Source: Dehalococcoidia bacterium (GTDB taxonomy: Bacteria; Chloroflexota; Dehalococcoidia; WHTO01). Taken from it: a DNA stretch of 64,000 nucleotides. Positions 7,362 to 38,084 of this stretch are shown one piece after another. The notes under the pieces were generated by a model that worked only from the letters and a program-made list of their open reading frames with translations, made no database searches and was not told the DNA's origin. The number at the start of each line of letters is the position of its first letter. The stretch's first letter is position 1. Location: NCBI GenBank assembly GCA_040902555.1, contig JBBDXC010000010.1, positions 2,309 to 66,308 of the forward strand, in the 5' to 3' direction. Made by a program: the position numbers and the translations under genes.

Positions 7362-7652
7362 TTGTTGGCGCTCAGCTCCGACGAGGTACGCCACATCGCT
7401 TCGCTCGCCAGGCTCGCCCTCGCCGAGGCTGAGGTTGAGCGGCTGCGCGAGCAGCTCTCAGGCATCCTGGAGCACTTCGAGCTCCTCGGCGAGCTTGATA
7501 CGAGCGGCGTTGAGCCGACGGCCCACACCCTGCCCCTGACCAACGTGATGCGCGACGACGTGGCGAGGCCCTCGCTCAGCGTTGAGGACGTCCTATCCGT
7601 GGCCCCGCGAACGGAGTCTGCGTACATCCGCATCAGGGCTGTCTTCGAGTAG
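7362..7652 (+). CDS. gatC: Asp-tRNA(Asn)/Glu-tRNA(Gln) amidotransferase subunit C
   Basis: 96-aa ORF with typical GatC sequence; TTG start after GGGAGG; stop overlaps the gatA start. Confidence 0.9.
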   Translation: MLALSSDEVRHIASLARLALAEAEVERLREQLSGILEHFELLGELDTSGVEPTAHTLPLTNVMRDDVARPSLSVEDVLSVAPRTESAYIRIRAVFE

Positions 7653-13081: not shown

Positions 13082-15367
13082 GTGGTCCAAACCTCTCCCC
13101 AGGCCCTGATCTCCCGCGGCCTCCTGAAGCTGCGCCGGCGCGGGTCAGCGGTCCAGCGGAACGGCGAGCGGACCATGTCCGCGCTGAAGGCCGAGGCCGA
13201 GATCTTCGTCGACCGCTGGGGCGTCGCCCACGTTTACGCGCGGACTCTCCACGACCTGTTCTTTCTCTTCGGCTACGTGCAGGCCTGGGATCGGCTCTGG
13301 CAAATGGAGTACACGCGGCGTGTTGCGAGCGGCCGGCTGGCCGAGATCCTCGGCCCTGACCTGCTCCCCGTTGACCGCTTTACTCGCCGGGTCGGCTTCA
13401 AGCGCGTTTCGGAAAAGAGTGTGCAGGCGCTGACCGGCGAGGGAGCGCTGATCATCGGTTCGTTTGTCGAGGGCATCAATATGTACATCGGCGAAGCCAG
13501 CCGCCGGCCTGTCGAGTTCGAGCTTCTGGGCTACGAGCCCGAACCCTGGGAGGCGTCCGACGTATCCGCCGCTTCAATGCTCGCCGCCTTCAACGTCACG
13601 CCAAACTGGGACCTCGAGGTGATCCGCTCGCTCCTTCTTGCATCCGTGGTGTCGCCGGAAGACCTGGCGGCGCTGGAGATGGAAGGCTTCGAAGCGGGGG
13701 CCGGCGGCACGCGGTTCAAGGCGGCCGCCGCCGCCCTGGGCGAGTTCCGCAGGGCGATCCCTCAAGCCCTGGGGCCGCTGGGAGGCAGCAACGCCTGGGC
13801 AATCGCGGGTTCGCGGACGACGAGCGGCAAGCCGGTCCTCGCCGGCGACCCTCATTTGGCCGCCGGAATTCCCAACATCTGGCACCAGGTGCATCTGAGC
13901 TGCGGCGACCTGGACGTGATCGGGGCGGCGATGCCGGGGATACCCGGCGTGATCATCGGCCACAACCGCCATGCCGCCTGGTCGGTGACGGCCGGGATGG
14001 TCGACTGCTCTGACATTTTCATTGATGACGGCGACGGTCAGACCGTGCCCGAGGAGATCAAGGTGGCGGGCGCCGAAACCGTGGTCGAGGAGGTCTTCGT
14101 CGGCCGTCACGGCCCCGACATCGGTCCCGCGGTTGGTGTCAGCGATAGGAGGCTCTGCCTGAAGACCGTCTTCGCCGGTGGCGACAGCCTGGTCGGGCCC
14201 CTGCTGAATATCGCCCGCAGCAAGGACTGGTCGGGCTTCCGCGAGGCCCTCAGCGAGTGGACGGCGCCGGTGCTCACCTTCGTCTACGCCGACCGCCACG
14301 GCGACATCGGTTCGCAGCTTGCAGGCCAGGTGCCGATACGAGCCGGCGGCGCGAAGGGTCTGTTGCCCAACGAGCCCGGAGACGGAGAATGGACCGGGTT
14401 CATCCCGTTCGCCGAGCTGCCGTCCCTCCACAACCCCGATGAGGGATTCGTGGTCTCGACCAACAACAGGCAGGCGCCCGCGGATTATCCCTATTGGCTG
14501 GGCATTGATTTTATCGAGGGGGCGCGGGCGCCGCGGATCGTTGAGATGCTTCGCGCGAGGGAGAAGCACTCCCCACTCGATGTCTCCCGCATGCAGGTTG
14601 ATGTCGAGTCCGTGCCCGCTCGCCAGATCGTCGCCGCCCTGTGTGGGCTGGCCCTGAGCTCCCCCGCTTGCCGGCCGGCCCTGGACCTTCTCGCCTCGTG
14701 GGACTGCCGCCTTGCGGCCGATAGCGCGGCGGCATGCGTCTACACCGGCTTCGTGCGTGAGATGTCGCGCCGGATCGGGAAGCGGCGGTTGGGGGGCGGC
14801 GGGGACTTCTGGATGGGCCGTTACGTCAACCCGCTGACGGGTGAGAACGGCTGGGTCTTCAACCAGGCGGCGAAGCTCGCGCAGCTGCTTAGTGAACAGC
14901 CCAGCGGCTGGTTCGACAGTTGGGCGGATCAGGCGGAGGGCGCGCTGCGCGACGCTGTCGAGCTCCTTGGGGCGAACCTCGGCGCTGACATCTCGAAGTG
15001 GCGGTACGGTCGCCTGCACCGGCTCACCCTGCGCCATCCCCTCGGCGACGGCGACAAAGATGCCCTATTGAACCGAGGGCCCTACGAGGCGCCGGGCGAC
15101 GCCCAGTGCGTCTTCGCTAACGGAATGCCTGCCGACGGCTTCGATGTGGTCCTCGTGCCGGGCTTTCGACAGGTCGTCGACCTTTCCGATGTCAACGCCG
15201 GGCACGCAATGATGCCGGGGGGACAGAGCGGGGATCCCGCCAGCACGCATTACGATGACCTGACGCCCTTCTGGCTGGAGGGGCGTATGCACCGTCAGTA
15301 CTTCGCGCGGACCGACGTTGTGCGGCACTCGGAGTCCAGCCTGAGGTTGTTGCCAGCCGCTGACTAG
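13082..15367 (+). CDS. Penicillin acylase family protein (Ntn-hydrolase; possibly acyl-homoserine-lactone acylase)
   Basis: 761-aa ORF; conserved alpha-subunit region and the beta-subunit N-terminal nucleophile motif GGSNAWAIAG; start may be the internal ATG at 13175. Confidence 0.9.
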   Translation: MVQTSPQALISRGLLKLRRRGSAVQRNGERTMSALKAEAEIFVDRWGVAHVYARTLHDLFFLFGYVQAWDRLWQMEYTRRVASGRLAEILGPDLLPVDRFTRRVGFKRVSEKSVQALTGEGALIIGSFVEGINMYIGEASRRPVEFELLGYEPEPWEASDVSAASMLAAFNVTPNWDLEVIRSLLLASVVSPEDLAALEMEGFEAGAGGTRFKAAAAALGEFRRAIPQALGPLGGSNAWAIAGSRTTSGKPVLAGDPHLAAGIPNIWHQVHLSCGDLDVIGAAMPGIPGVIIGHNRHAAWSVTAGMVDCSDIFIDDGDGQTVPEEIKVAGAETVVEEVFVGRHGPDIGPAVGVSDRRLCLKTVFAGGDSLVGPLLNIARSKDWSGFREALSEWTAPVLTFVYADRHGDIGSQLAGQVPIRAGGAKGLLPNEPGDGEWTGFIPFAELPSLHNPDEGFVVSTNNRQAPADYPYWLGIDFIEGARAPRIVEMLRAREKHSPLDVSRMQVDVESVPARQIVAALCGLALSSPACRPALDLLASWDCRLAADSAAACVYTGFVREMSRRIGKRRLGGGGDFWMGRYVNPLTGENGWVFNQAAKLAQLLSEQPSGWFDSWADQAEGALRDAVELLGANLGADISKWRYGRLHRLTLRHPLGDGDKDALLNRGPYEAPGDAQCVFANGMPADGFDVVLVPGFRQVVDLSDVNAGHAMMPGGQSGDPASTHYDDLTPFWLEGRMHRQYFARTDVVRHSESSLRLLPAAD

Positions 15368-18952: not shown

Positions 18953-20512
18953 TTAGCTGACGCCGCGGGGGATAGACGGCCCTCCGGATTCTTTGGCGTG
19001 GGGAGCGTGTTCGGCGCTGGGCTGCCAGCGCAGGATGGGCTTGCGGGCGGCCGTCGCCTCGTCTAGGCGGCGCACCGGCGAATAGTGCGGAGCCGTCTTG
19101 ACGACCTCCGGGTCTTCCTCCGCCTCGCGGGCGATCGCCAGCATGGCGTCGCAGAACGCGTCGAGGTTTTCCAGCCCTTCCGACTCAGTGGGCTCGATCA
19201 TCAGGGCTTCATCGACGATCAGCGGGAAGTAGACCGTTGGCGGATGGAAGCCGTAGTCGATCAGGCGCTTGGCGATATCCAGGGTGCGCACGCCGTGGGC
19301 CTTCTGGTTGCTGCCCGAGAAGACGACCTCGTGGAGGCAGGAACGGTCGTAGGGCAGCTTGTAGACGCCCTTCAGCCGCTCCCGGATGTAGTTGGCGTTG
19401 AGGACCGAGTTCTCGCTGACCGAGCGCAGGCCCTCGAGGCCGTGGGCGCGGATGTAGGCGTAGGCGCGCACGAGCACGCCGAAGTTGCCGTGGAACAGGC
19501 CGACCTTGCCGATGGACTTCGCGGGTGCGGCCAACCGGAAGGCGCCTGCCTCGTCCCGCTCGACGACCGGCGTTGGCAGGTAGGGGGCCAGGTGGCTGCG
19601 CACGCCGATCGGCCCCGCGCCGGGCCCGCCGCCGCCGTGGGGCGTGCTCATCGTCTTGTGCAGGTTCATGTGGACGACATCGAAGCCGAGGTCGGCGAAG
19701 CGCGCGCGTCCGATGATGGCGTTCATGTTGGCGCCGTCCCCATACATCAGGGCGCCCGCCGCGTGGACCATCTCAGCCACGCGGCAGATCTCCGGCTCGA
19801 AGAGGCCGAGCGTGTTGGGCATCGTGATCATCAGCGCGGCGACATCGTCGTCGAGCTGCGCCGCGAGGTCGTCGATGTCGAGGTTGCCGTCGGGCGCCGT
19901 CCTGATGCTGGCCACGCTGAAGCCGCACATCGCGGCCGTCGCCGGGTTGGTACCGTGCGCGGAGTCGGGGACCAGTATCTTGTGTCGCTTCTCGCCGCGG
20001 TCCTGGAGGTACGCCTTGACCGAGAGGATGCCGGACAGCTCGCCGTGGGCGCCGGCCGCCGGCGCCAGGCAGACGGCGTCCATGCCGGTCAGCGCGGCAA
20101 GGCACTCCTGGAGGCGGTACAGGACCTCAAGGGCCCCCTGGGTTGTGGCGTCGTCCTGCATCGGATGGACGCGGCTGAAGCCGGGGAGGGCCGCAATGTC
20201 GTCGTTGACCTTGGGGTTGTACTTCATCGTGCAGCTGCCGAGCGGGTAGAAGCCGGTATCGATGGAGTAGTTCAGTGTGCTCAGCGCCGTAAAGTAGCGC
20301 ACTACGTCGATCTGGGACATCTCCGGGAGGGTCAGATCGGCGCGAAGCAGGTCCTGCGGTAGTTCCGCCTCGGGCACGTCGAGCTTCGGCAGGATGCAGC
20401 CAATACGCCCGGGCCGGCTCAGGTCGAATGTCAGGCGGTCGCCCATGTCGGTCTCGAAGGGCTGACGCGCCATCGGGTGGACACGGTCGTGGCCGGGTTC
20501 GTGGTTGACCAC
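18953..20512 (-). CDS. gcvPB: Glycine dehydrogenase (aminomethyl-transferring) subunit 2
   Basis: 519-aa ORF with conserved GcvPB N-terminus ([36 protein letters not shown]); follows gcvPA. Confidence 0.95.
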
Positions 20513-20535
20513 GCGGGGCCGGTCGAGCAGCTCGC

Positions 20536-21846
20536 TCAGCGCACGACCTCCTGCATTGATTCCACCAACCTGTCGACCTCCGCCCTGCTGTTCATCTCCG
20601 TGACGCAGACCAGGAGGCCATTAGCGAAGCGGTCGCTGACGTCGTAGCCGGCGATGATCCCCTTCTCGAGGAGGCTCGCCTTCAGCTCCGGCGTCGGCAG
20701 CGGGCCAGACACCACGAACTCGTGGAAGAAGGTGCCGGAGATCGGCAGCGAGAACCCGGGGATCTCGGCTATCCGGCCGGCGGCGTAGTGGGCCTTGTGG
20801 TAGCAGAGCTCGGCCACTCGACGCAGCCCGTGTTTGCCGAGGGTGGTCATGTAGACGGTGGCCGCCAACGCCAGCAGCTGCTGGCTGGTGCAGATGTTTG
20901 AGGTCGCGTGCTCGCGACGGATGTGCTGCTCGCGGGTCTGCAGGGTCAGGACGTAGGCGGTCCGTCCATCGACATCGGCCGTGCGGCCGACGATGCGGCC
21001 CGGCATCTTCCGCACGAGGTCCTGGCGACAGGCAAAGATGCCCGCATAGGGGCCGCCAAACGACGGCGGGATTCCCAGGGACTGGGCCTCGCCGACAACA
21101 ATGTCGGCGCCGTAGTCCGACGGCGGGCGGAACATCGCCAGTGAGATGGGGTCGGCAGAGACTATGAAGAGGGCACCGGCCGCCTTCGCGCTTTGTGAAA
21201 GGGCTTCGACATCCTCGAAGTAACCGAAGAAGTTGGGGTTTTGGATGGCCAGGCAGGCGTGGTCGGGGCCGAGCTCGACCTGGTCGGGCTCGAGGACGTC
21301 GACCTCGTAGCCTTTGCCGGCGGCGTAAGTCTTGATCACGGACTCGAAGGAGACGTGGGCGGTGGACAGGAGCGCGATGCGGCGCCGGCCCGTGACGCTT
21401 GCTGCCATCAGGCAGGCTTCGGCGAGGGAGCTGGCGCCGTCGTACATGCTGGTGTTAGCGACGTCCATGCCGGTCAGCTCGCAGATCATCGACTGGAACT
21501 CGAATGCGGTCTGTAGGGTGCCCTGGCTGATCTCCGGCTGGTACGGCGTGTAGGCGGTCTTGAACTCGCCGCGATTGATGATGTGCGAGACGACGGATGG
21601 GGTGTAGTGGCGATACGCCCCCGCGCCGAGGAAGCTCAACGGCCGCTGGGGCTGTATGTTCTTCCAGGCCAGCCCCGCCAGTTCGGCCACCAGCTCCTGT
21701 TCAGACAGTTGCGGCGGGAGGTCGATGCGGGGGTCGCGGCAGTCTTCGGGGATGTCGGCGAACAGCGCGTCCGAGGAATCGAGGCCGAGCCGGTCGAGGA
21801 TCTGGCGCCGGTCCTCGTCGGTGTTCGGGATGTACGGGTGGCTCAC
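20536..21846 (-). CDS. gcvPA: Glycine dehydrogenase (aminomethyl-transferring) subunit 1
   Basis: 436-aa ORF with conserved GcvPA sequence ([22 protein letters not shown]..., [18 protein letters not shown]). Confidence 0.95.
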
Positions 21847-21853
21847 GAGCCGC

Positions 21854-22237
21854 TCAACCGCTGGCGGTCAGGGCTTCGTAGTCCGCGGCGCTCATCAGCT
21901 GGTCAATCTGGGCGGCGTCGGCGGGCGTCAGTCTGAGCAGCCAGCCGCCGCTGTAAGGCTCGCTGTTGACCAGCTCAGGTTGGCGGTCAAGGGCTGCGTT
22001 GCGCTCGACGACGTCGCCGCCGATCGGCGAAAAGAGGTCGGAGACTGCTTTCACCGATTCAATCTCGCCGAACTTGGCAAACTGCTCGATGTTTGCACCC
22101 GGCTCCGGGAGCTGGACATAGACCACATCGCCGAGGGAGTCCTGGGCGAAGTCGGTGATGCCGATGACCGCCTGCTCACCCTCCATCCGCAGCCATTCGT
22201 GTTCCTTGGTGTACTTCAGGTCTGAGGGGATTTCCAA
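21854..22237 (-). CDS. gcvH: Glycine cleavage system H protein
   Basis: 127-aa ORF; lipoyl-lysine region (ESVKAVSDLFSPIGGDVVE) and conserved N-terminus (KYTKEHEWLRMEG). Confidence 0.95.
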   Translation of the reverse strand: MEIPSDLKYTKEHEWLRMEGEQAVIGITDFAQDSLGDVVYVQLPEPGANIEQFAKFGEIESVKAVSDLFSPIGGDVVERNAALDRQPELVNSEPYSGGWLLRLTPADAAQIDQLMSAADYEALTASG

Positions 22238-22322: not shown

Positions 22323-23339
22323 TCAGGCGAGGCGGATCACCTGGCCGAGGCGGGCCGATTCGTAGGCGGCGATGGCGACCGCGAGGCTGGCACGGCCCTC
22401 GCGACCGTCGACGAGCGGCCGCTCGCCGCCCTGGATCACGCGTATGAAGTGGACGTAGGGGTTGATGAATGCGCTCTTCTCGGGCAGATCCGGCACGACC
22501 TTGTTGACCCCGCCGGCGCCGGCGAGATAGACGACCAGCGGCTCTTTGCTGGACTGGCCCAGCACGGCACGCCCCTTCTCGCCCTGGATGACCATCTGCG
22601 TGTCCGGGAAGGGCCGAGCCGTCCACGAAGTTTGGAGACCGGCGATGACATCGCCCTCGAAGCGCATCAGGAGGAAGGCGTTGTCCTCGGCGAAGGTGGG
22701 CTTTTCGAGGCGCGCGGTCAGCGCGCTTACCTCGGTAACTTCTCTGCCGACGGTCCAGCGCAGAAGGTCGATCATGTGGATGCCGAGGTCGAGCAGAGCG
22801 CCGCCCCCCGCGGCCTCCTCGCGCCAGAACCAGTCGGAGCTGGCGCCCCAGGCTTCGTCGGGTCCGGCGTGCATGAAGCTGGCGCGGGCGCTCAGCACTC
22901 GACCGAGCGTTCCCTCGGCGACGATGCGCTGGAGCTCAGCGAAGAGGGGGATGAAGCGCAGGTTGTGGGCGACCATCAGGACGGTGCCCGCGCTCTCGGC
23001 GGCTGCCACCATGGCGTCGGCCTGCTCGAGGGAAACCGCCATTGGCTTTTCGACCAGGACGTGCTTGCCCGCTTGCGCGGCGGCGATGGCGATCGGTGCA
23101 TGCAGGGAATTGATCGTGCAGACGTCCACCGCATCGACAGTCGGGTCCGCGACAAGCTCCTCCCAGGTCTCGTAGACCTGTGGGACCTTGAACTCCGCGG
23201 CCGCGGAACGCGCTGAGTCGGCCCGGCCGCTGGCCAGCGCCACCACCTCGGTGTCTGGATCGGCACAGAGCGCAGGAAGATGGGCGCGGCGGGCGATCAG
23301 GCCGGTGCCGACGAGACCGATGCGGATCTTTGATGGCAT
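22323..23339 (-). CDS. Gfo/Idh/MocA family oxidoreductase
   Basis: Rossmann N-terminus (IRIGLVGTGLIARRAHLPAL) and EKP motif (VLVEKPMA); start taken as the internal ATG at 23339 (ORF track starts at 23471). Confidence 0.85.
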   Translation of the reverse strand: MPSKIRIGLVGTGLIARRAHLPALCADPDTEVVALASGRADSARSAAAEFKVPQVYETWEELVADPTVDAVDVCTINSLHAPIAIAAAQAGKHVLVEKPMAVSLEQADAMVAAAESAGTVLMVAHNLRFIPLFAELQRIVAEGTLGRVLSARASFMHAGPDEAWGASSDWFWREEAAGGGALLDLGIHMIDLLRWTVGREVTEVSALTARLEKPTFAEDNAFLLMRFEGDVIAGLQTSWTARPFPDTQMVIQGEKGRAVLGQSSKEPLVVYLAGAGGVNKVVPDLPEKSAFINPYVHFIRVIQGGERPLVDGREGRASLAVAIAAYESARLGQVIRLA

Positions 23340-23633
23340 AGAAGATGAGTGTGCAACCCTGAGATTTAGCGCGAAAGCAACGCCAACGGCGTGCGCGCGG
23401 CCAGAGTCTCCGCGAGAATTAGCGTGGCCCTCGGGAAGTGGCCCCGTCTCCCCGGTACTGTCTGACTCCACCGTCTTGGGGCTCTTGCGGTGGCTGTCAT
23501 GGTGCCGGCCGGGCGTCCACTTTACCGAGGGCCCTTTGCTTCGGGGCTCTCTGGGGCTCCTGAGCCTCTTTTCAGGGGCTCTCTTACTAGAGACGCAACA
23601 CCGCGCGCAAACTTGCGCCGCTTTCTCAGGAAT

Positions 23634-24431
23634 TTACAAAGCCCCGAGCCGCGCAAGAGCGGCTATCGGCGGGCGGGTCACGCGGTACTCCTCGGCGTAC
23701 TCGAGGCCATGGCGCCGGCCGGTGTCGGCAAGCCCCGCGCGCACGATGGCGGCCGCGATCGCGCCCAGGCTGGGTGTCCCCTGCAGCATCGGGACTTCCA
23801 TGTCCACCGTGGCTGCCTGCAGGCGCCATTGGTGGACCATGTGTCCAAGCATCGTCTCGTGTGAGGCGACCGCCGCGATGACCTTGTCGACCTGTCCTGA
23901 TACGTCGATAGGATCGGTGACCTCGAGGAGGCGCCGGGCGAAGTACCAACGCTCAAAGACCGCGTGGGGCGCCAGGCCCTCGGCGAAGTGTTCGGGGTGG
24001 TGCTTGTCGAACATCGATGTCCAGTAGGCCTCGTCGGCAGCCTGGGCGACCTTGATGTGGTCCTGGTTGTCCTCGTGGAAGGCGCCGTAGGGGTCGAACG
24101 ACATCACCGCGTAGGGCTTGTGCTTGCGGTAGAGGCGAATCAGCCGCTCGCGGAGCTCGACCTCGCTGGCGTCGCCGAGCGTATCGGTGACGTAGCCCAG
24201 CTCCTCGATCTGGTGGACGCCGAGGGCTGCCATGGCGGCCTGGAACTCCTGGGTGTTCCGCCGCTCCGTCTCAGCTTTGTCGAGACCCACCGAGTCTTTG
24301 TCATCGTTCGTGGCGCGCACTACGACTCTCCAGCCCTCCTCGGCCCAGCGGGCCACGCGGCCACCGCAGAAGAAGGCAACATCGTCGGCGTGGGCGACCG
24401 TGACGAGAGCGGTGCGCTCAGTCACGGACAC
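23634..24431 (-). CDS. PIG-L (LmbE-like) family N-acetylglucosaminyl deacetylase
   Basis: 265-aa ORF with the family motif near the N-terminus (LVTVAHADDVAFFCGG) and downstream His/Asp ligands; GTG start 3 nt after the DegT stop. Confidence 0.85.
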   Translation of the reverse strand: MSVTERTALVTVAHADDVAFFCGGRVARWAEEGWRVVVRATNDDKDSVGLDKAETERRNTQEFQAAMAALGVHQIEELGYVTDTLGDASEVELRERLIRLYRKHKPYAVMSFDPYGAFHEDNQDHIKVAQAADEAYWTSMFDKHHPEHFAEGLAPHAVFERWYFARRLLEVTDPIDVSGQVDKVIAAVASHETMLGHMVHQWRLQAATVDMEVPMLQGTPSLGAIAAAIVRAGLADTGRRHGLEYAEEYRVTRPPIAALARLGAL

Positions 24432-24434
24432 TCG

Positions 24435-25694
24435 CTAGAGGTAAGCGTGGGCGACCTTCCGCACGGATCGCACAATGTCGTCGACGTCCGCGTCTGTCAT
24501 CCGCGGGCCGACGGCGATGCCCACCGACCGGCCCAACAGGTCTTCACTGCGCGGACAGAGCCCCATGTAGTAGCGCCTGGCGGTCGGGTGCAGCTCGCAG
24601 TTGAACGGGCAGCCCTTCGACCACGGCGTCCGCTGCTCCAGCACCGCGGGATTCGCGTAAACAGGCTTGCCGCCGTAGATCTGGCCCGCCGGGATACCCT
24701 CGGCGCGCAAGGCTTTACCGAATTGGCGGGCCCCTGCTGCATCGCGGAGATAGAACGTGACGCTGCCACCCTCGCCCGCCTCATGCGGCAGAGTTCGCCA
24801 ATCAACCGGGATATCACCGAGGCGCTGCCTGATTTGGCGGGCCCTCTCGCGGCCGCTGGAGACGATTTCGTCCATCCTTCCCAGTTGCACTGAGGCGATG
24901 GCGCTGGCGATCTCCGTGATCCGCAGGTTCGTGCCGATGAAGGGGTCGCCGGAGCTGTGCTCCCTGACGTCGCCCTTCGAGGTAGTGAACTGACCGCCCT
25001 GGTCCTGGTACCGAACGGCCCGGTCGAAGACCTGGAAGTCGTTGGTGAGGAGGAAGCCGCCTTCACCGCTCGTTATGTTCTTTTCCAGCTGGAGGCTGAA
25101 GGCACCCGCGTCCCCGATGGTGCCGACCGGGCGTCCGCGGTAGCTGACGCCGGCGGCCTGTGCCGCGTCCTCAAGGACGCGGATGCCCCGGCGTTTGGCG
25201 ATCTCCATGATCGGGTCCATGTCGCAGGCCGCGTTGATCAGGTGGACAGGGACGACGGCTGTCGTCTTGTCTGTGATGTTCTCCTCGAACGACGCCGGGT
25301 CCAGGTTCAGAGACTCATCGACTTCGGCGAAGACCGGGACGGCCCGCGCGTTAACCACGGCGCCCACTGTCGCGATAAACGTGACCGCGGGGACAATCAC
25401 CTCGTCCCCCTCCTCGACGCCGAGCCCCACCAGCCCGGCCTGGAGCGCAGCCGTGCCGGAGCTCACAGCGACGGCATGCTCTACGGAGAAACGCTCGCGG
25501 AGCTCGGCCTCGAACCCGCCCGATTTGTCGAGGAACTCGGGGCCGTAGTAGCGGAAGAGCGACCGGCTCTTGAGGACCTCGACGGCTGCATTGAGCTCGT
25601 CGTCATCCAGGTAGCCAACACCGTGGGCGGTGTCGAACGATTCGCTGCGCACCGGCATGCCGCCGTTGAGGGCCAGGCGTTCGTCGTCTGCCAA
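24435..25694 (-). CDS. DegT/DnrJ/EryC1/StrS family PLP-dependent sugar aminotransferase
   Basis: 419-aa ORF; conserved DegT regions (AVSSGTAALQAGLVGLGV..., GDAGAFSLQLEKNITSGEGG). Confidence 0.9.
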   Translation of the reverse strand: MADDERLALNGGMPVRSESFDTAHGVGYLDDDELNAAVEVLKSRSLFRYYGPEFLDKSGGFEAELRERFSVEHAVAVSSGTAALQAGLVGLGVEEGDEVIVPAVTFIATVGAVVNARAVPVFAEVDESLNLDPASFEENITDKTTAVVPVHLINAACDMDPIMEIAKRRGIRVLEDAAQAAGVSYRGRPVGTIGDAGAFSLQLEKNITSGEGGFLLTNDFQVFDRAVRYQDQGGQFTTSKGDVREHSSGDPFIGTNLRITEIASAIASVQLGRMDEIVSSGRERARQIRQRLGDIPVDWRTLPHEAGEGGSVTFYLRDAAGARQFGKALRAEGIPAGQIYGGKPVYANPAVLEQRTPWSKGCPFNCELHPTARRYYMGLCPRSEDLLGRSVGIAVGPRMTDADVDDIVRSVRKVAHAYL

Positions 25695-27023
25695 TCAGCG
25701 CTCCTCGTAAAGCTCCCGCAGCGCATCGAGCGCGGCGTCTCTGACAAGCTTCTCTGAATCCTCGGCAAAGCGGGCAAAGCCGACTTCGTAGCCGCCGTTC
25801 GGGAACTCCTCGAGCGGTGGCACATAGCCGATGTAGTCGTTCGCGTACCCGCAGACCAGGAGGCGCTCGACCGGGGCGTCCCGCTCGAGACTCTCACGCG
25901 TGGCCACCAGGAACTCGCCGGGCAACGCGACCAGCGCGCAATTGGCCGACAGCCGAAACACCTGCACCTCAACCTCCCGGCGTTCCGGGGCTCGCAGCTG
26001 GTGGTAGGTCTGCTGCAGGCGCTCCATGGCCAGCTGGTTGATACGAGGCAGAAGCGGCCGGCGGCCTTTCTGGTCATCCGCGGGGAGCTCCGCAAGTGAC
26101 TTCTCCAGCTTTTCGATCTCCTCAACGATGTCGTCAAGGGGAGCCAGGTCCCGCTGTCGTAGTTCGACCCTGCGCACAGCAAAACCGAGGGATGCCATCT
26201 CCAGGACGCGACCGGTGATGGGCGGTTCAGGAATCTCCTCCGACCAGCTGAGGTTGATCCCCCACTGGCCGCGCCCGAGGGGCCGCATCTCCTGGACGGC
26301 GCGGGTGGCCGCGGCGCCGACTATGCCTCCAACGCGGTCTACGTCGTTGAAGTCGTGCGCCATCCAGACGGGATTCACGTCGCCGCAGCAGCCCTGGAGG
26401 TAGATGCCGACACCGCCGACGTTCCTCTCGACAAACGCGCAGGCGGCGCCGGGGAAATCGGCTGAGTATTCCATGTTGTCGTGTTCGAGGACAGTCGCGT
26501 GGCAGGCGTAATTGACCAACGTCGCGATGGGCATGCCGGTGTCCTCGTTCTCAGCGAGGAGGAGGTGAGCCTCGTGCTGCAGGCGCCCCGCGGGGTCGCG
26601 GCGATTCTGGGCAATGCTGTCCAGTGGCACTGTCGCCAGCTTGAGCACCGCGGGAACCGCGTCCGTACGCGCCTTGGCAATCGCCTGCATGACGGTATTC
26701 GCCGAGCGCTCCAGGTAATCGTCGAGGCGATGGCTGTAGACCACGCTTGGTCCCGAGTGGGTGTGCGTAGCGGCAACGCAAACGGCCGCGGCCGGAATAC
26801 CAAGCTCGCCCTCGATTCGCTGACGGACCCGGCGTACGAAGTGGTCTGGGACGCCGACGAAATCGCAGACGGCGATGGCGACTTCCTTGTCGCCGTCGCT
26901 CAGGCACAGCGTGCGGACCATGAGGTCGTCGTGCGTCCCCGTGGCCGTGCCCTGCCGCGCGCCGTAGCCGCCCATCGGCAGCCCCGGTGGCGGGGTCAGG
27001 GATTTGGCGGTGGCGCCGGCCAT
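25695..27023 (-). CDS. Neutral/alkaline ceramidase-like amidohydrolase
   Basis: Conserved N-terminal region of the neutral ceramidase family (LTPPPGLPMGGYGAR ... VAATHTHSGP); start taken at ATG 27023 (ORF track 27089). Confidence 0.8.
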   Translation of the reverse strand: MAGATAKSLTPPPGLPMGGYGARQGTATGTHDDLMVRTLCLSDGDKEVAIAVCDFVGVPDHFVRRVRQRIEGELGIPAAAVCVAATHTHSGPSVVYSHRLDDYLERSANTVMQAIAKARTDAVPAVLKLATVPLDSIAQNRRDPAGRLQHEAHLLLAENEDTGMPIATLVNYACHATVLEHDNMEYSADFPGAACAFVERNVGGVGIYLQGCCGDVNPVWMAHDFNDVDRVGGIVGAAATRAVQEMRPLGRGQWGINLSWSEEIPEPPITGRVLEMASLGFAVRRVELRQRDLAPLDDIVEEIEKLEKSLAELPADDQKGRRPLLPRINQLAMERLQQTYHQLRAPERREVEVQVFRLSANCALVALPGEFLVATRESLERDAPVERLLVCGYANDYIGYVPPLEEFPNGGYEVGFARFAEDSEKLVRDAALDALRELYEER

Positions 27024-27122: not shown

Positions 27123-28679
27123 TCAGGGAAGGGGCAGGTCGGGGCCGTCCAGGAGGCCCCCGCCGTCGTCCTCAGGGCCCTCGCCGGGGTCGGGTGTTGT
27201 GTCTGTAACACCTTCGACCTCGTCCACGACGTCCTCGATAGCACTCACCTGTTCGTCGACGGCGTCAGTCAGGTCGTCGGCGGCGTCCTCAACTTCCGAT
27301 ACCACCTCATCGGCGGTGTCGCTCACTTCGTCAGTGGAAACTTCCGAGGACAGGTCACCGTGCGGCAGCTCCCCAACGAGCTCGGCTGAGTCATCAGCGG
27401 CGTCTTCGGAGGTGACCGTCTCGTCGCTCGTGCCTGGTCCATCAGGCTCGACAGCGTCGTCCGGCGAGGGCGAAGCAACGGAGGTTTCGGGCGGCGGGGA
27501 GGCCGGCTCAGACCCCTGGGCCGCCGCTACGTCCTCGCCTGCCCCATGAAGGACCCGGCCGGGCACAGGCGAAATAGTCATTAGGTCGATGCTGACGCCT
27601 CGGCGGTCGACCCGTATTGTGTCGGCGCCCGCTGAGGATGACGTGGCAGCGACGTCGGCACGGTCGCTGGCGGCCTCCAGAGCCGTTTCGGCAGTAATGC
27701 CGCCGGCTGAGCTGTCGTTGGTGACAGCGGCCACGCCGACCACGGTGATTACAGCACCCGCGCCGACAACCGCGACCGCCGAACCGACGGCGGTGGCGCT
27801 GGTCGCAGCCACGGTGCCACCGGCCTTGGCCAGCCCGGCGGACAGCCGCTTGGCGAGGCCGGCGATAGTGGTCCCCAAAGAAAAACCAGGGAGGAGCAGG
27901 GGCGGCAGGAAGCCATGCCAACTGGCGCCCATCTTGTCCTGTACGACCCGGCAACGTGAACAGAGGTCGAGGTGGGTCAGGACGCGCACGCGCCGGCGGT
28001 CGCTGAGCGTCCCGGCGGATAGCCCCCTGAGGTGGGCCCGCATCTTGTAGCAGGCCAGGTTGTCGGAAGCCTGGACCCCGCTGAGCACGGAGTCGAAGTT
28101 GCGATGGAAGTTGGAGCGCGCGCGGTAGAGGAGCGTCTCGACAGCCGACAGGGACTGGCCAAGCCTTTCAGCGATCGCGCAGTAGCTCTTGCCCTCTATC
28201 CAGCGCAGGCGCAGGACTTCTCGCTGCCGGTCCGGTAGCTGCTTGAGGGCGGTGCTGGCGGCGCGGCGGCGCTCATTGAGCTCGGCGATGTCGTAGGGGT
28301 CATCGACGGCCTCGAGCTGGCTTTCGTCGGATTCGTCGAGGTAGACGGCGCGGCGGGTGGGCTCTCTCAGTACGCTGCGGCCGCAGTTGCGGGCTATCGT
28401 GGCAAGCCAGGAGAAGAAAGCTTCGGGGCGATCAAGGTCAGCGAGGCGCTGGTAGGCCTTGAGCCAGGCATCCTGAGCCGCGTCGTCCGCGATCTCAGGA
28501 GGGAGCGACATGCGGAGGCCGGCGAGCAACCTATCGTTGTAGCGCTCATAGAGGCGGCGGTAAGCCCCGTCATCGCCAGCTCTCACTGCTCTGACGAGCT
28601 CGGCCGCCGCCAGGAGTTCCGGTTCGGCCTCTTTTACCATTGGCCGGCCTCTCGCCGGGTTGTCAGCATCTGCACTCAA
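27123..28679 (-). CDS. ECF sigma factor fused to a ZAS-type anti-sigma domain, with TM segment and acidic C-terminal tail
   Basis: 518-aa single ORF. N-terminal ~190 aa has sigma-70 regions 2 and 4 (YRRLYERYNDRLL..., DRQREVLRLRWIEGKSYCAIAERLGQSLSAVETLLYRAR). Then HxxxCxxC zinc-finger motif (LTHLDLCSRC), a Gly/Ala/Val-rich hydrophobic stretch, and an Asp/Glu-rich tail. Confidence 0.8.
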   Translation of the reverse strand: MSADADNPARGRPMVKEAEPELLAAAELVRAVRAGDDGAYRRLYERYNDRLLAGLRMSLPPEIADDAAQDAWLKAYQRLADLDRPEAFFSWLATIARNCGRSVLREPTRRAVYLDESDESQLEAVDDPYDIAELNERRRAASTALKQLPDRQREVLRLRWIEGKSYCAIAERLGQSLSAVETLLYRARSNFHRNFDSVLSGVQASDNLACYKMRAHLRGLSAGTLSDRRRVRVLTHLDLCSRCRVVQDKMGASWHGFLPPLLLPGFSLGTTIAGLAKRLSAGLAKAGGTVAATSATAVGSAVAVVGAGAVITVVGVAAVTNDSSAGGITAETALEAASDRADVAATSSSAGADTIRVDRRGVSIDLMTISPVPGRVLHGAGEDVAAAQGSEPASPPPETSVASPSPDDAVEPDGPGTSDETVTSEDAADDSAELVGELPHGDLSSEVSTDEVSDTADEVVSEVEDAADDLTDAVDEQVSAIEDVVDEVEGVTDTTPDPGEGPEDDGGGLLDGPDLPLP

Positions 28680-32021: not shown

Positions 32022-32098
32022 GGGCGATTAGCTCAGTTGGCTAGAGCGCTTGCTCGACACGCAAGAGGTCACTGGTTCAAGTCCAGTATCGCCCACCA
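32022..32098 (+). tRNA. tRNA-Val (anticodon GAC)
   Basis: Cloverleaf by eye: acceptor GGGCGAT/ATCGCCC, D-arm GCTC...GAGC, anticodon stem CTTGC/GCAAG with loop TCGACAC, T-arm with GGTTCAAGTCC, encoded CCA. Confidence 0.9.
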
Positions 32099-32198
32099 CC
32101 TTTTGAATCTGCGTTCGGGGCATTTGGCGCGGCCGTCCATCGCCCGAAGGTGCCACTGCGGTGCCTATTCGCGAGAACCGGGCACCAGGTGCATCAGT

Positions 32199-32274
32199 GG
32201 GGACATAGCTCAGCCGGGAGAGCGCTGCGTTCGCATCGCAGAGGTCGGGGGTTCGAATCCCCCTGTCTCCACCA
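32199..32274 (+). tRNA. tRNA-Ala (anticodon CGC)
   Basis: Acceptor GGGGACA/TGTCTCC with G3:U70, anticodon stem CTGCG/CGCAG with loop TTCGCAT, T-loop GGTTCGAATCC, encoded CCA. Confidence 0.9.
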
Positions 32275-32325
32275 CCCCCCTGCTCGGATGGCCGCCAACG
32301 CTGGCTAAGATAGACCTTGTTCGGT

Positions 32326-32402
32326 GCCCCCGTAGCTCAGGTGGATAGAGCAACGGTTTCCTAAACCGTGTGTCGGGTGTTCGAGTCACCCCGGGGGTAC
32401 CA
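32326..32402 (+). tRNA. tRNA-Arg (anticodon CCT)
   Basis: Acceptor GCCCCCG/CGGGGGT, anticodon stem ACGGT/ACCGT with loop TTCCTAA, T-arm GGGTG-TTCGAGT-CACCC, encoded CCA. Confidence 0.85.
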
Positions 32403-33024: not shown

Positions 33025-35346
33025 TTAATGGGGCAAAGGCGGGCTGACAGTAACACCAGCCGCAGCCAGACGCTCAAGATCCGCACCACGTCCGATCTCC
33101 TCGAGGATCTCGGCGGTGTGCTCGCCCAGCAGCGGCGCCACCCGCTGGATGACGCCGGGGGTTTTCGACAGGCGGAAGAGGAGGCCTGTTTGGGTGATTT
33201 GGCCGAGCTCAGCGTGGTGGCCGCTCGCGAGCAGGTCGTTGGCGGCAACCTGGGGGTCGTTGAAGAGGTCGAGGGGCGAGCGGAGGCGGGCACAGGGAAC
33301 CCCGACGCCGTCGAGAAGGCGTTCCGCATTCTTTGAGTCGAGGCCGGCGAGTACGGCGCTTACTGTGGTCGCATCGCTCCGCTCGGGACCGGAGAAACGG
33401 GCGGTAGCGAAGTCCTGTAACGCAAGGCCGAGCGCAGACCCTAAAGCCTCCCAATGGCTCGCTTCGCGGCAGGCTACGAAGAGCCAGTGATCGCCCGCGC
33501 AGCGATAGGCCCGGTAGCCCGGCCAGGGCCCTTTGGCTTCCGATGGTAAGGTGCGGGGTTCAGGAACTCCCTGGCCGAAGAGGAACTGGCCGGACTGGGC
33601 GGCCATCGTGGAGTTGGTCAGCGAGAGGCGGACGTGAGAGCCCTCACCGGTCTTCTCGCGCATCCAAATGGCCGCCAGCGCGCCGAAGGCATTAAGCATG
33701 CCGGCGGCGTGGTCGGACAGCGGCACAGCGAAGAAGACCGGGTCGCCGTCGCCGCCCTGGGCGGCCATTGCGCCCGACCGCGCCTGCAGCAGAGGATCGA
33801 AGGCCGGACGCTCGGCCAGCGGTCCCGTAAAGCCATTACCGACAACGCTGACGTAGACCAGGCGCGGATTGACCGCCTTGAGCGACTCATAGTCGACGCC
33901 GAGCCTCTGGGTGACGCCGGGGCGGTAATTCTCCACGAGCACGTCCGCGCCGCGGACGAGGTCAAGCAGTATCTCCTTGCCCTCAGGGCTGCGCAGGTCG
34001 AGGCCGATGCTGCGTTTACCACGGTTCCAGCCCAGGAAGCCGACAGCCATCTGGCGGAAAGGCTCGCCCTGCACCGGCTCAATCTTGATGACGTCGGCGC
34101 CCAGGTCGGCCAGCATCATTGGGCCAAGCGGGCCGGCGATGTAGAACGACAGATCAAGCACGCGCAGACCATCCAGTGGACTCTTGAGACCACGAGCAGC
34201 TTGCGCCCCTGGTCTGAGCTGCACCCCTGACCAGATTTCCTCGATCGCCCTCTCTCTTGGCACCGGCGCAGCCTTCTTGACGACCGGCTCGTCGGTACCG
34301 ACGCGGATCGGGACGCCCATCTGCACTGTTGGGCCGAGGACTGGGTCGTCGACCTCGACGCGCATGCCATTGGCGATCACCTGCGGGTCATCGATGAAGG
34401 CGCGCCGAGAGCCGACCTGGGCGGCCGGGACGTCCGATGCATCGAAGATGCTCAGCCACTCGCCACAGGGCTTCGAAGCGATGGCCTCGCCGATTACGGC
34501 CACCAGCGCCGCCCGGTAATCGGGAGCGACGACGCCCCAGGGGGCGTTTTGGAAGCGTTCATCGCCGACAAGCTCTGGTCGCTCGATGGCTATCGCCATC
34601 TTGTTGAAGAAGACATTGTTGCCGCAGGCCAGGAAAATCCACTCGCCGTCGGCGCACTGGTAGAGGCGATAGGCCGGGACGGCGCCAAGCGGGAAGCCAC
34701 GGGCCAGCGTGAGGCGCATGACAGCACCTTCGAGGGCGTTGACGAGGCTGCCGGTGGTCATCGCCAGGGCGCCGGCCAGCCAAGACACCTCAACGGTCTG
34801 CCCTCGACCGGTCGTTCGGCGTGCGAGTAGCGCGGCCATGGCCGCAATAGCACCCAGGAAGGCGGCGCCATAGCTCGCGAAGGGTAGCGTCAGGTAGACG
34901 GGCTCCAGGCTGGCGCTCGGCTGACCTTCGAGTAGGCCCGCGGCCGCGGCGGCCAGGGCATCATCCGCGAAGCGGCCGGCGTCGGGGCCGCGCGAACCCA
35001 AGGGCGGCAGCCAAAGGTGAACAAGGTGAGGATGTCTCGTGGCGATCTCGTCGGCATCCAGGCTGGCGGGCGCGGCACGTGGGAGGTAGCTGGTCACGAG
35101 CACGTCGGCGCATTGCAGCAGTCGTTCGAGCCGTTGCCGATCCTCACTACTTTCGAAGTCGACAAGGCAACCATCCTTGCTGCGGTTCCAGACGTGGAAG
35201 CCGGGGAGGCGCCGGCCGGGATCGCCCGACGGCGCGAGCTCGACCTTGACGACATCGGCGCCCTGCTCCGCGAGCAGCATCGTCGCGTAGGGGCCGGCGA
35301 TCTCCTCGCTGAGGTCGACGACGCGCAGGCCTTCCAGAGGCAGCAT
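33025..35346 (-). CDS. CoA-transferase family III (CaiB/BaiF) protein with two tandem complete transferase domains
   Basis: Two copies of the family N-terminal signature (LEGLRVVDLSEEIAGPYATMLLAEQGADVVKVE and LDGLRVLDLSFYIAGPLGPMMLADLGADVIKIE); start taken at ATG 35346 (ORF track 35385). Confidence 0.85.
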   Translation of the reverse strand: MLPLEGLRVVDLSEEIAGPYATMLLAEQGADVVKVELAPSGDPGRRLPGFHVWNRSKDGCLVDFESSEDRQRLERLLQCADVLVTSYLPRAAPASLDADEIATRHPHLVHLWLPPLGSRGPDAGRFADDALAAAAAGLLEGQPSASLEPVYLTLPFASYGAAFLGAIAAMAALLARRTTGRGQTVEVSWLAGALAMTTGSLVNALEGAVMRLTLARGFPLGAVPAYRLYQCADGEWIFLACGNNVFFNKMAIAIERPELVGDERFQNAPWGVVAPDYRAALVAVIGEAIASKPCGEWLSIFDASDVPAAQVGSRRAFIDDPQVIANGMRVEVDDPVLGPTVQMGVPIRVGTDEPVVKKAAPVPRERAIEEIWSGVQLRPGAQAARGLKSPLDGLRVLDLSFYIAGPLGPMMLADLGADVIKIEPVQGEPFRQMAVGFLGWNRGKRSIGLDLRSPEGKEILLDLVRGADVLVENYRPGVTQRLGVDYESLKAVNPRLVYVSVVGNGFTGPLAERPAFDPLLQARSGAMAAQGGDGDPVFFAVPLSDHAAGMLNAFGALAAIWMREKTGEGSHVRLSLTNSTMAAQSGQFLFGQGVPEPRTLPSEAKGPWPGYRAYRCAGDHWLFVACREASHWEALGSALGLALQDFATARFSGPERSDATTVSAVLAGLDSKNAERLLDGVGVPCARLRSPLDLFNDPQVAANDLLASGHHAELGQITQTGLLFRLSKTPGVIQRVAPLLGEHTAEILEEIGRGADLERLAAAGVTVSPPLPH

Positions 35347-35406
35347 CAGCGCAGCACCTCTCCCCCTGGCACCGTCTCCGTCCACCGAGAAGGGGACATG
35401 GGCCTG

Positions 35407-36423: not shown

Positions 36424-36508
36424 TCGGTCAGCCTTTCCGGGATGACGGCAACTCCATCCTCGCACGGGGCCAGCGTCGCTCGTGCGCCGGACCTACATTC
36501 GAAGGCGC

Positions 36509-38056: not shown

Positions 38057-38084
38057 TCAATCTCCGTTTCCAGAAAGGACCCTT

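Follow-up and report, generated by a model that had tools for sequence, protein, structure and literature searches.

Four neighbouring genes of an uncultured Dehalococcoidia bacterium encode a ceramidase-like amidase (CER), a DegT-type aminotransferase, a PIG-L deacetylase and a Gfo/Idh/MocA oxidoreductase, which raises the question of whether they belong to one pathway and on what it would act. The genes are located at 22323-27023 of the 64-kb stretch of DNA that was analysed (the window). The co-directional cluster with these domains described in the first-pass annotation was confirmed by the ORFs and Pfam matches, all four genes being carried on the minus strand, and the ECF sigma factor fusion adjacent to the cluster and the glycine cleavage genes downstream were likewise found where it had placed them (Table 1). 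The annotated form of CER begins at Met23 of the longest ORF (coordinate 27023, as in the first-pass annotation), while the ATG of Gfo at 23339 agrees with the public gene call.

Table 1. Coordinates of the four genes and of flanking features in the window.
Feature	Coordinates	Strand	Remarks
CER, short ceramidase-fold Zn-amidase (predicted)	25695..27023	-	442 aa; predicted cytoplasmic; conserved module anchor
DegT, KdnA-like DegT/DnrJ/EryC1 PLP aminotransferase	24435..25694	-	419 aa
PIG-L/LmbE-family N-deacetylase	23634..24431	-	265 aa; variable deacetylase slot
Conserved non-coding stretch, PIG-L/Gfo interval	23340..23633	-	possible leader, promoter region or small RNA
Gfo/Idh/MocA NAD(P)-dependent sugar oxidoreductase	22323..23339	-	338 aa
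ECF sigma factor with zf-HC2 anti-sigma motif (fusion)	27123-28679		upstream of CER; Pfam
gcvH	21854-22237		downstream of Gfo; then gcvPA, gcvPB

The DegT start abuts the CER stop with a gap of 0 nt, and about 3 nt separate DegT from PIG-L. PIG-L is followed by a non-coding gap of 295 nt before Gfo, with gcvH-gcvPA-gcvPB tightly behind the latter; CER-DegT-PIG-L and Gfo could therefore be two transcription units, and Gfo may be on a separate transcript, given this gap and the Gfo-gcvH adjacency kept in the nearest syntenic relative (L090). In a comparison of three distinct sequences, the non-coding stretch shared long identical blocks with L090, the majority of indels not being multiples of 3; its alignment with L092/L093, in which it stands without any downstream gene, extended over ~190 nt. 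Its predicted RNA fold had a z of -3.16, and no Rfam match was found for it.

CER matched Pfam Ceramidase_alk (2.9e-14, 53 bits; cut-off 32.1), and its family profile matched the Pseudomonas neutral ceramidase 2ZWS (1.7e-25). In the numbering of this enzyme (PaCD), His97, His204, Glu411 and Tyr448 are the Zn ligands and His99, Arg160 and Tyr460 are catalytic; in the profile alignment, 7/7 of these 2ZWS residues (H97, H99, R160, H204, E411, Y448, Y460) fell on invariant columns of the CER family, which has many invariant polar and charged residues. Foldseek searches with the AlphaFold model (pLDDT 82) returned only neutral ceramidases below E 1e-4 (best E 2.6e-21, TM 0.68). Compared with PaCD (2ZWS/2ZXC; Pseudomonas aeruginosa) and human ASAH2 (4WGK), CER shares the catalytic-domain fold (E ~1e-21 to 1e-19) but at 15–17% identity, and covers only ~47–49% of the solved ceramidases (TMt). 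The protein ends at 442 aa, as against 630–670 aa for solved ceramidases and about 630–700 aa for neutral/alkaline ceramidases overall, with no C-terminal ceramidase domain by Pfam and no signal peptide, and its score against the NCBIfam ceramidase equivalog NF041649 was 32.7, below the cut-off of 1200. These comparisons place CER, with its neutral-ceramidase fold and complete set of catalytic residues, in a large uncharacterised family of short proteins, and with fold, Zn ligands and catalytic residues retained, Zn-dependent amide hydrolysis would be expected. The superfamily is functionally heterogeneous, one distant member being fused to a lipid-binding SCP2 domain.

The DegT protein (Pfam DegT_DnrJ_EryC1, 4.3e-78, 263.5 bits) had as best solved homologue the Kdo8N transaminase KdnA (5K8B, 3.8e-59), a label carried by many of its orthologues in the JGI annotation. 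The alignment was full-length (query 38-414 against KdnA 16-392), C-terminal region included, and the PLP Schiff-base lysine in SLQLEKNITSGEGG aligned to the KdnA lysine in YSFDSVKTITCGEGG; this lysine separates DegT-family aminotransferases from His-containing dehydratases. The substrate of KdnA is a free sugar, not a nucleotide sugar. An arrangement like that of KdnA, with 8-dehydro-Kdo as substrate and KdnB as adjacent partner, was not supported, because the redox partner beside the window DegT is a Gfo/Idh/MocA enzyme, not a KdnB-type Fe-ADH, and no Kdo genes were found near it.

Gfo matched the N- and C-terminal GFO_IDH_MocA domains of Pfam (~1e-32 each; 112 and 113 bits) and carries the motifs VLVEKPMA (EKP lysine) and LDLGIH (D-x3-H). 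The best solved homologue was the Sinorhizobium 1,5-anhydro-D-fructose reductase 2GLX (1.9e-38), followed by DgpA (1e-35); Gfo shares family motifs with 2GLX and the DgpA-type glycoside 3-dehydrogenases, a similarity that fixes neither substrate nor regiochemistry. The DegT similarity gives no regiochemistry either. Assignments as IolG (166.6; cut-off 355), UDP-GlcNAc 3-dehydrogenase (139.9; 450) or levoglucosan dehydrogenase (138.2; 650) were rejected, as all NCBIfam scores fell below the cut-offs.

The PIG-L protein aligned with all 129 positions of the Pfam PIG-L profile (1.1e-19, 71.7 bits), with the metal motifs AHADD and HEDNQDH (AHPDD-type and HxDH-type), and its best solved homologues were LnmX and archaeal diacetylchitobiose deacetylases. 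Identification as BshB1 (65.2; cut-off 182.5), BshB2 (31.6; 195.25) or Mca (23.5; 277.15), the best NCBIfam matches, was likewise rejected on sub-threshold scores.

Whether these genes belong together was assessed in 80 genomic loci with CER homologues (1.33 Mb), with unrelated metagenome contigs (0.705 Mb) as control. DegT was found near CER in 18 loci, Gfo in 14, PIG-L in 10 and ROK in 12, versus 0 for each family in the control, and unsupervised clustering of neighbours returned DegT, Gfo and PIG-L as the three most frequent families; the clustering of CER, DegT, Gfo and PIG-L thus exceeds chance. DegT orthologues (49–68% identity) flanked CER in 9/12 of the closest genome loci (L001-L012), and the CER-DegT pair was present in every annotated CER-orthologue context, with DegT orthologues of 50–74% identity adjoining CER in L082-L087, L090, L092 and L093. 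Gfo orthologues adjoined DegT in L090 (66% identity), L083 (61%), L086 and L087 (45% each), the last two showing the unit on its own in its smallest form, Gfo<-DegT / CER. The conserved core is therefore CER abutting a KdnA-like DegT, usually with an orthologous Gfo, and not a four-gene unit: all four families occurred together in only 1/80 genome loci (L020), PIG-L was missing from L090, and YdjC or NagA occupied its slot in other relatives. The earlier proposal was partly supported: membership of the genes in a functionally linked amino-sugar pathway stood, with the CER-DegT association and the place of Gfo beside DegT in its favor, while co-conservation of all four genes did not.

The flanking genes fared differently from the core. 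The 80 genome loci contained no ECF homologue, the one in L090 lying ~1 kb away, and relatives have ROK regulators instead; the suggested control by the ECF fusion was not supported. Nor was a link to gcv, since the direct adjacency is shared only with L090.

The setting of the CER-DegT-Gfo trio in relatives is, by gene content, amino-sugar catabolic and not lipid. Opp/Dpp-type (SBP_bac_5) ABC importers and NagC-like ROK regulators shared operons with CER orthologues in L082-L085, where ABC importer, ROK, NagA, YdjC and GH20 fit a nag/chb-type operon, and NagA of relatives scored above the equivalog cut-off (289 and 274 bits vs 225.65). The orthologues that supply this importer/ROK/NagA context are about 50% (CER) and 53–68% (DegT) identical; no transporter, ROK regulator or NagA was adjacent in the window or in the nearest relatives L090, L092 and L093, and a search of the whole 64 kb gave no SBP5 or ROK homologue. 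YdjC, GH20, SIS_2 and TIM barrels of the xylose-isomerase type were recurrent neighbours of CER homologues. Distant CER clades follow the same logic with unrelated enzymes: a class-III aminotransferase is accompanied by a GMC oxidoreductase, or a PLP enzyme resembling D-Ser dehydratase by a sugar MFS transporter.

A parallel is provided by the archaeal Dac pathway and the chb operon of E. coli, in which an N-acetylated amino-sugar oligomer is taken up and deacetylated by a PIG-L or YdjC enzyme, with regulators that respond to sugar. The window PIG-L matches Dac structures, its orthologues have GH4, ROK and SIS genes in their home cluster, YdjC (ChbG; ChbF is a GH4) fills the PIG-L slot in relatives, and Opp/Dpp-type or sugar ABC uptake is shared. 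However, the Dac and chb pathways have no ceramidase-fold amidase, DegT or Gfo enzyme, and the window encodes no glycosidase.

The best model, in which we place about even confidence, would be a cytoplasmic module that catabolises or salvages an N-acylated amino sugar, probably of hexosamine or N-acetylhexosamine type and imported as a mono- or disaccharide; we infer both the substrate and the order of steps. CER, together with any second deacetylase (PIG-L, or YdjC/NagA in relatives), would cleave amides to free amines, the KdnA-like DegT would pass the exposed amine to a 2-oxo acid to give a keto sugar, and Gfo would reduce the latter with NAD(P)H to a neutral sugar entering central metabolism. 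As for the last step, the closest solved homologue of Gfo, 2GLX, is a 2-keto-sugar reductase. Intact catalytic motifs, the tight packing of CER-DegT-PIG-L and the conservation of CER-DegT(-Gfo) beside sugar importers, NagC-like regulators, NagA and GH20 are in favor of the model. If CER were itself an N-deacetylase, the second deacetylase would lack an explanation, unless the substrate has two amides. No literature on this cluster was found.

The pair of amidases would be explained by scavenging of glycopeptides or aminoacyl-sugars, which we consider unlikely. CER would cut a non-acetyl amide between an amino sugar and an attached amino acid or peptide (MurNAc-L-Ala of muropeptides, GlcNAc-Asn, or Cys-GlcN of bacillithiol- or mycothiol-type thiols), deacetylation would fall to PIG-L, YdjC or NagA, and the amino sugar set free would go on to DegT and Gfo. 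Consistent with this are the Opp/Dpp-type importers, whose binding protein had GsiB and DppA as best NCBIfam matches, the sub-threshold BshB1, BshB2 and Mca matches of PIG-L, a gamma-glutamyltranspeptidase, GH20 and GlmA-like NAT_N/GNAT_C acetyltransferase in L085, Asparaginase_2 in L084, and an M28 peptidase directly behind CER-PIG-L in L020. However, each of these peptide-related neighbours occurs sporadically, in a single locus, and all are missing from the minimal units L086 and L087; marker genes of MurQ/MurK type or specific to thiols were not identified, and SBP_bac_5 transporters also carry oligosaccharides.

A second question is the direction of the DegT-Gfo chemistry. Pairing of a dehydrogenase with a DegT enzyme is shared with KdnA/KdnB (Shewanella Kdo8N synthesis), WbpB/WbpE, GnnA/GnnB and NtdC/NtdA, which interconvert a sugar hydroxyl and an amine via a carbonyl, and the keto/amino logic of the first-pass annotation is reasonable. 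Those pairs are biosynthetic, from hydroxyl to amine, and KdnB is an Fe-ADH, whereas the partner here is of the Gfo family. Unlike them, DegT-Gfo is accompanied by amidases, importers and NagC-like regulators, a setting suggesting that the pair runs in the reverse, catabolic direction. A biosynthetic module, in which Gfo would oxidise a sugar hydroxyl and DegT aminate the ketone, the resulting amino sugar going into a natural product or an envelope glycoconjugate, with the hydrolases trimming or activating intermediates like BtrD, the PIG-L enzyme of aminoglycoside synthesis, appears distinctly improbable. It draws on the classically biosynthetic role of such pairs, on the envelope-stress-type ECF sigma factor upstream, and on an apparent biosynthetic cluster in Kitasatospora that counts against the catabolic model, where a 59%-identical DegT is paired with a Gfo-family gene beside an adenylation-thiolation protein, a condensation domain, a sulfotransferase and a glycosyltransferase. 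However, the Kitasatospora Gfo is not orthologous to that of the window and its cluster lacks CER, the ECF adjacency is not conserved, and no glycosyl-, nucleotidyl- or acyltransferases recurred beside CER-DegT in annotated contexts, where importers, NagC-like ROK regulators, NagA and GH20 do.

The gene order could also be an accident, with CER-DegT one unit, PIG-L a recent insertion out of another sugar cluster and Gfo functionally tied to the glycine-cleavage operon, to which we assign a small probability. The conserved 295-nt gap, the synteny of Gfo-gcvH-gcvPA-gcvPB-CoA_binding-EamA in L090 and the single locus with all four families are consistent with it, as are the absence of PIG-L from L090, L092 and L093 and the occurrence of its orthologues (59–60% identity) in a different sugar cluster (GH4/ROK/GntR/Fe-ADH). 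Nevertheless, Gfo orthologues lie next to DegT with gcv genes absent in L083, L086, L087, L003, L006 and L012, PIG-L is packed closely against DegT, a neighbouring clade of Chloroflexota repeatedly shows CER-PIG-L pairs (L013, L015, L017, L019, L020, L025, L027), and the home cluster of PIG-L, which also holds SIS genes and a DegT, is itself an amino-sugar cluster.

The sphingolipid-like or amino-lipid substrate of the first-pass annotation, with CER a true ceramidase or N-acyl-aminolipid amidase, is very improbable despite the retained fold and catalytic residues, the SCP2 fusion and a GH123 gene (a family first described on glycosphingolipids) adjoining CER in five distant loci, since CER diverges from real ceramidases in identity, architecture and equivalog score, its family has many invariant polar and charged residues, and its neighbourhood is sugar-related (importers, ROK, NagA, YdjC, GH20) with no lipid-metabolism genes.

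By these comparisons, the four genes most probably make up an uncharacterised pathway, centred on the conserved trio of CER, DegT and Gfo, in which imported amino sugars would lose their N-acyl and amino groups.

The CER, DegT, PIG-L and Gfo genes, encoding a short ceramidase-like amidase, an aminotransferase, a deacetylase and a Gfo/Idh/MocA oxidoreductase, respectively, were co-directional between positions 22323 and 27023 of the window (G+C content 63–69%). The first-pass annotation had placed them there, and its observation and coordinates proved correct, with all domains confirmed by Pfam, although the cluster may comprise two transcription units. CER, DegT and PIG-L abutted one another (gaps of 0 and ~3 nt), a 295-nt non-coding gap separated PIG-L from Gfo, and the glycine-cleavage genes gcvH, gcvPA and gcvPB followed tightly after Gfo. 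Simple promoter and terminator scans at the cluster were uninformative. An extended Gfo ORF of 382 aa (GTG at 23471) was rejected, since both the public gene call and the lengths of homologues favoured the ATG at 23339, and a putative second DegT at ~10.7 kb was an unrelated class I/II aminotransferase. The ECF sigma/anti-sigma fusion was a single chain of 518 aa, with a hydrophobic middle and a long, acidic, low-complexity C-terminus. No gcvT adjoined the glycine-cleavage genes, which were followed by a CoA_binding_2 gene and an EamA transporter gene.

Coordinates of features in the window and of their counterparts in related loci
Feature	Locus	Position	Strand	Remarks
CER	window	25695-27023	minus	annotated 442-aa product, start at Met23 of the longest ORF
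DegT	window	24435-25694	minus	domain confirmed by Pfam
PIG-L	window	23634-24431	minus	domain confirmed by Pfam
Gfo/Idh/MocA	window	22323-23339	minus	ATG at 23339, in agreement with the public gene call
ECF sigma with zf-HC2 anti-sigma motif	window	27123-28679		upstream of CER; Pfam
gcvH, gcvPA, gcvPB	window	18953-22237		directly downstream of Gfo; Pfam
gcvH, gcvPA, gcvPB	L090	11629-14914		
Conserved non-coding element	window	23340-23633	minus	
Conserved non-coding element	L090	10239-10541		
Conserved non-coding element	L092	4405-4591		
Conserved non-coding element	L093	8494-8680		
Amidase-signature enzyme	window	7652-9106		
Penicillin-amidase-family Ntn protein	window	13082-15367		
Three consecutive tRNA genes	window	32022-32399	plus	between LVIVD-repeat protein region and CoA-transferase gene
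Fused double family-III CoA-transferase	window	33025-35385		786 aa
Fe-ADH_2 protein	window	35407-36465		adjoins the CoA-transferase
RTX-cupredoxin paralogue 1	window	37364-38756		
RTX-cupredoxin paralogue 2	window	38962-39879		

The CER family profile matched the Pseudomonas neutral ceramidase at 1.7e-25, and the Zn ligands (H97, H204, E411, Y448) and catalytic residues (H99, R160, Y460) all fell on invariant columns of the family. Structure matches to the AlphaFold model of CER (pLDDT 82, pTM 0.85) below an E-value of 1e-4 were exclusively neutral ceramidases (E 2.6e-21, TM 0.68, 15–17% identity). CER lacked the C-terminal ceramidase domain, its N-terminus was not signal-peptide-like, and its ceramidase equivalog score was 32.7 against a cut-off of 1200. 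Judged from sequence and predicted structure, CER is best described as a putatively competent Zn-amidase of the ceramidase fold, and not as a ceramidase. The short CER family comprised 4,361 representatives of 50%-identity clusters at E ≤ 1e-30, with a length of 410–480 aa in almost all of the best 150 full-length matches. Rare fusions were found among its members (P0385, P0474, P0486), of a tandem CER with an SCP2 lipid-transfer domain (952 aa) or of CER with DUF7133 and cytochrome c (1942 aa), and a further rare form of 905 aa had a 480-aa N-terminus without annotation. As Rosetta-stone partners, SCP2 and DUF7133/cytochrome c gave no clue for the CER clade of the window.

DegT aligned over its full length with KdnA (3.8e-59), and the alignment took in the PLP lysine as well as the C-terminal region; the substrate of KdnA is a free sugar, not a nucleotide sugar. 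Gfo carried the EKP and D-x3-H motifs, and its nearest solved homologue was 1,5-anhydro-D-fructose reductase, which acts on a 2-keto sugar; DgpA came next. The metal motifs were present in PIG-L, whose nearest solved homologues were LnmX and archaeal diacetylchitobiose deacetylases. None of the four proteins reached an NCBIfam equivalog cut-off.

Linkage was examined at 80 genomic loci with CER relatives, selected among the matches in species-representative genomes, which numbered at least 588. At these loci, genes were predicted with a GC3-weighted caller and all neighbours were clustered. The three commonest neighbour families were Gfo (21 loci), DegT (16) and PIG-L (10). By tblastn over the same loci (1.33 Mb), DegT was found at 18, Gfo at 14, ROK (a NagC-like regulator family) at 12 and PIG-L at 10, against none of the four in 0.705 Mb of unrelated metagenome contigs, a control whose taxonomic mix differs from that of the 80 phylogenetically non-independent loci. 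DegT orthologues (49–68% identity) occurred in 9 of the 12 closest loci, where CER was 42–51% identical. At least 15 of the best 120 DegT homologues agreed with a CER homologue in the length of the longest contig, which suggests that the two lie on the same contigs. The four families came together at a single locus of the 80 (L020, which also encoded a xylose-isomerase-type TIM barrel and an M28 peptidase), so that co-conservation of all four genes was not supported. Neither an ECF nor a gcvH homologue was found near CER relatives at any of the 80 loci, and the suggested control by the ECF fusion thus finds no echo in a conserved adjacency to CER.

The annotated contexts of CER orthologues (L082–L087, L090, L092, L093) made this pattern plain. 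The nearest relative, L090, read ECF, then NMO / CER, DegT, a 303-nt gap, Gfo, gcvH, gcvPA, gcvPB, CoA_binding, EamA, which is the gene order of the window minus PIG-L (CER 54%, DegT 74% and Gfo 66% identical); its ECF gene lay ~1 kb upstream of CER, beyond two opposite-strand genes (NMO and a small gene). L092 and L093 held NMO / CER, DegT only, and L086 and L087 held Gfo<-DegT / CER and nothing more. Larger clusters were ROK / SBP_bac_5 (an ABC binding protein), two permeases, CER, DegT, small ORF, Gfo in L083 (Gfo 61% and DegT 65% identical to the window); Gfo / DegT, YdjC, permeases, ATPase, SBP_bac_5, CER in L084; SBP_bac_5, permeases, ROK, CER, DegT, NagA in L082; and DegT, YdjC, gamma-glutamyltranspeptidase, ABC genes, CER, GH20, acetyltransferase, PhzF in L085. 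Across these loci, CER and DegT form the conserved core, which Gfo usually joins. The deacetylase position varies (PIG-L, YdjC or NagA), and the gcv adjacency is lineage-specific, being common to the window and L090 only.

PIG-L is indeed partly independent of the other three genes. In a neighbouring Chloroflexota clade (CER 38–41% identical), PIG-L directly followed CER at seven loci, and these proteins were 31–36% identical to that of the window. The orthologues of the window PIG-L (59–60%) normally reside in a second amino-sugar cluster, likewise uncharacterised (L214, L216), composed of a sugar ABC importer, SIS, class-III aminotransferase, PIG-L / Fe-ADH, GntR/UTRA, ROK, GH4, a second-type DegT and an Fe-ADH/DHQ-synthase-like gene. 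Its logic is similar to that of E. coli chb, where a deacetylase works together with the GH4 enzyme ChbF, with a KdnA/KdnB-like pair of DegT and Fe-ADH added. This residence in a chb-like cluster argues that the window PIG-L is, as predicted from its relatives, an amino-sugar deacetylase recruited into the operon from outside the ancestral core. For Gfo, separate transcription is possible, but its orthologues adjoin DegT in many genomes with no gcv genes at that place.

The neighbourhood of CER relatives is a setting of amino-sugar uptake and catabolism. Recurrent ROK proteins had an N-terminal HTH and were NagC/Mlc-like but under the NagC and Mlc cut-offs, and recurrent NagA proteins exceeded their equivalog cut-off (289.5 and 274.3 bits vs. 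225.65). Other recurrent partners were YdjC (of the chitin-disaccharide-deacetylase family), GH20, GH123, SIS_2, xylose-isomerase-type TIM barrels and sugar or Opp-type ABC importers. In Actinomycetota (L014, L023, L024, L029 and L026, the last from the cultured Micromonospora sp. NBS 11-29), CER was flanked by SIS_2 proteins of ~245 aa, ROK kinases, Gfo and a sugar ABC importer; these SIS proteins might be related to NagS, a recently described GlcNAc-6-P dehydratase (PMC12680351).

In the pathway proposed here, an imported N-acylated amino sugar would be de-N-acylated by CER, plus a second deacetylase where one exists, DegT would transaminate the exposed amine to give a keto sugar, and Gfo would reduce the ketone. 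The substrate may be a chitobiose-like HexNAc oligomer, a di-N-acetyl diamino sugar or a conjugate of the glycopeptide type; GsiB/DppA-like binding proteins and sporadic GGT, M28 and Asparaginase_2 neighbours suggest such a conjugate. A catabolic direction is favoured because the module accompanies hydrolases, importers, NagC-like regulators and NagA, and not transferases (no glycosyl-, nucleotidyl- or acyl-transferase genes recurred beside CER relatives), and because in distant CER clades the amidase is accompanied by different PLP enzymes that remove amines and by different oxidoreductases. One such clade had a class-III aminotransferase, a GMC oxidoreductase and a TIM barrel, another a D-Ser-dehydratase-like PLP enzyme and a sugar MFS transporter; these partners are non-homologous, and the logic of unmasking an amine and then removing it thus recurs. 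Distant members occupied such other conserved clusters in Chloroflexota (L047, L059, L079) and Planctomycetes (L048, L049), and the GMC cluster also contained a methyltransferase, a PhyH dioxygenase and a Cache-repeat protein.

Two observations leave room for a biosynthetic role of the module: the existence of classical oxidoreductase-DegT pairs, and a DegT of 59% identity within a natural-product-like cluster of Kitasatospora sp. GP30 (L088/L089). That cluster, however, is without CER, and its Gfo-family gene is not orthologous to the window Gfo. The same cluster also carried genes for AdoMet synthase, TauD, a luciferase-like protein, an A-T didomain, sulfotransferase, GT1, a kinase, AlaRS-like proteins and a condensation domain. 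A lipid substrate, as the first-pass annotation had allowed, has little support, since no lipid-metabolism genes recurred beside CER relatives.

The gap before Gfo, downstream of DegT/PIG-L and upstream of Gfo-gcvH, contained a conserved non-coding element. The 295-nt stretch was conserved with L090, and ~190 nt also with L092 and L093, where no gene followed; the element was common to these three loci only (three distinct sequences). Identical blocks were long, and its RNA fold was somewhat better than that of shuffled sequences (z = -3.16). A coding origin was rejected, because the block CAAGAGCCCCAA fell in different frames in the window and L090 and most indels were not multiples of 3. A glycine or other riboswitch was rejected, as Rfam gave no match to the gap at gathering thresholds or at E ≤ 1. 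A metagenome scan for further elements with AAASCGGCGCAAGTTT returned at least 120 matches, none confirmed by nhmmer. The stretch is possibly a leader, possibly a small RNA; in L092 and L093 the copy lies within a gene-free stretch of ~900 nt, so that a small RNA standing on its own may be more apt than a leader.

Elsewhere in the window, the fused CoA-transferase had similar proteins near CER or PIG-L clusters (L082–L084, L214, L216), yet its link to CER is weak because it was seen at 4 of the 80 genome loci, which is not convincing as co-conservation. Two further amide hydrolases were encoded within 20 kb, of which the penicillin-amidase-family gene appears syntenic in L090, as a truncated gene at the end of that locus. 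Two tandem paralogues, in which RTX calcium-binding repeats are fused to a cupredoxin domain, were followed by an ARPP-1 domain protein.

The amino sugars that chitin and bacterial cell walls contain make up a major organic-nitrogen pool in soils, sediments and the ocean, and the Chloroflexota and Acidimicrobiia that consume them there are abundant and for the most part uncultured. Nothing was found in the literature on the CER-DegT-PIG-L-Gfo combination or on the short ceramidase-like family; one paper on PF04734 noted only that partial domain matches are common. The parts are ordinary enzyme families; what appears undescribed is that they are conserved together and that an amidase of the ceramidase fold stands in a sugar context. 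Our broadest proposal is speculative and, taken whole, rather unlikely: the short ceramidase-fold family would be unrecognised cytoplasmic N-acyl amino-sugar amidases. Combined with an aminotransferase of the KdnA type and a keto-reductase of the Gfo family, they would make up a new route of "transaminative deamination" that is non-phosphorylative and distinct from canonical NagA/NagB. This route would convert hexosamines of chitin or cell-wall necromass to neutral sugars and pass nitrogen directly to glutamate or alanine. If true, the conserved module of amidase, aminotransferase and reductase would harvest amino-sugar carbon and nitrogen in a way not recognised before, and would provide the first functional lead for a very large family now mislabelled "neutral ceramidase". 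At minimum, the analysis puts right an annotation by which the bacteria that carry CER are wrongly credited with sphingolipid metabolism.
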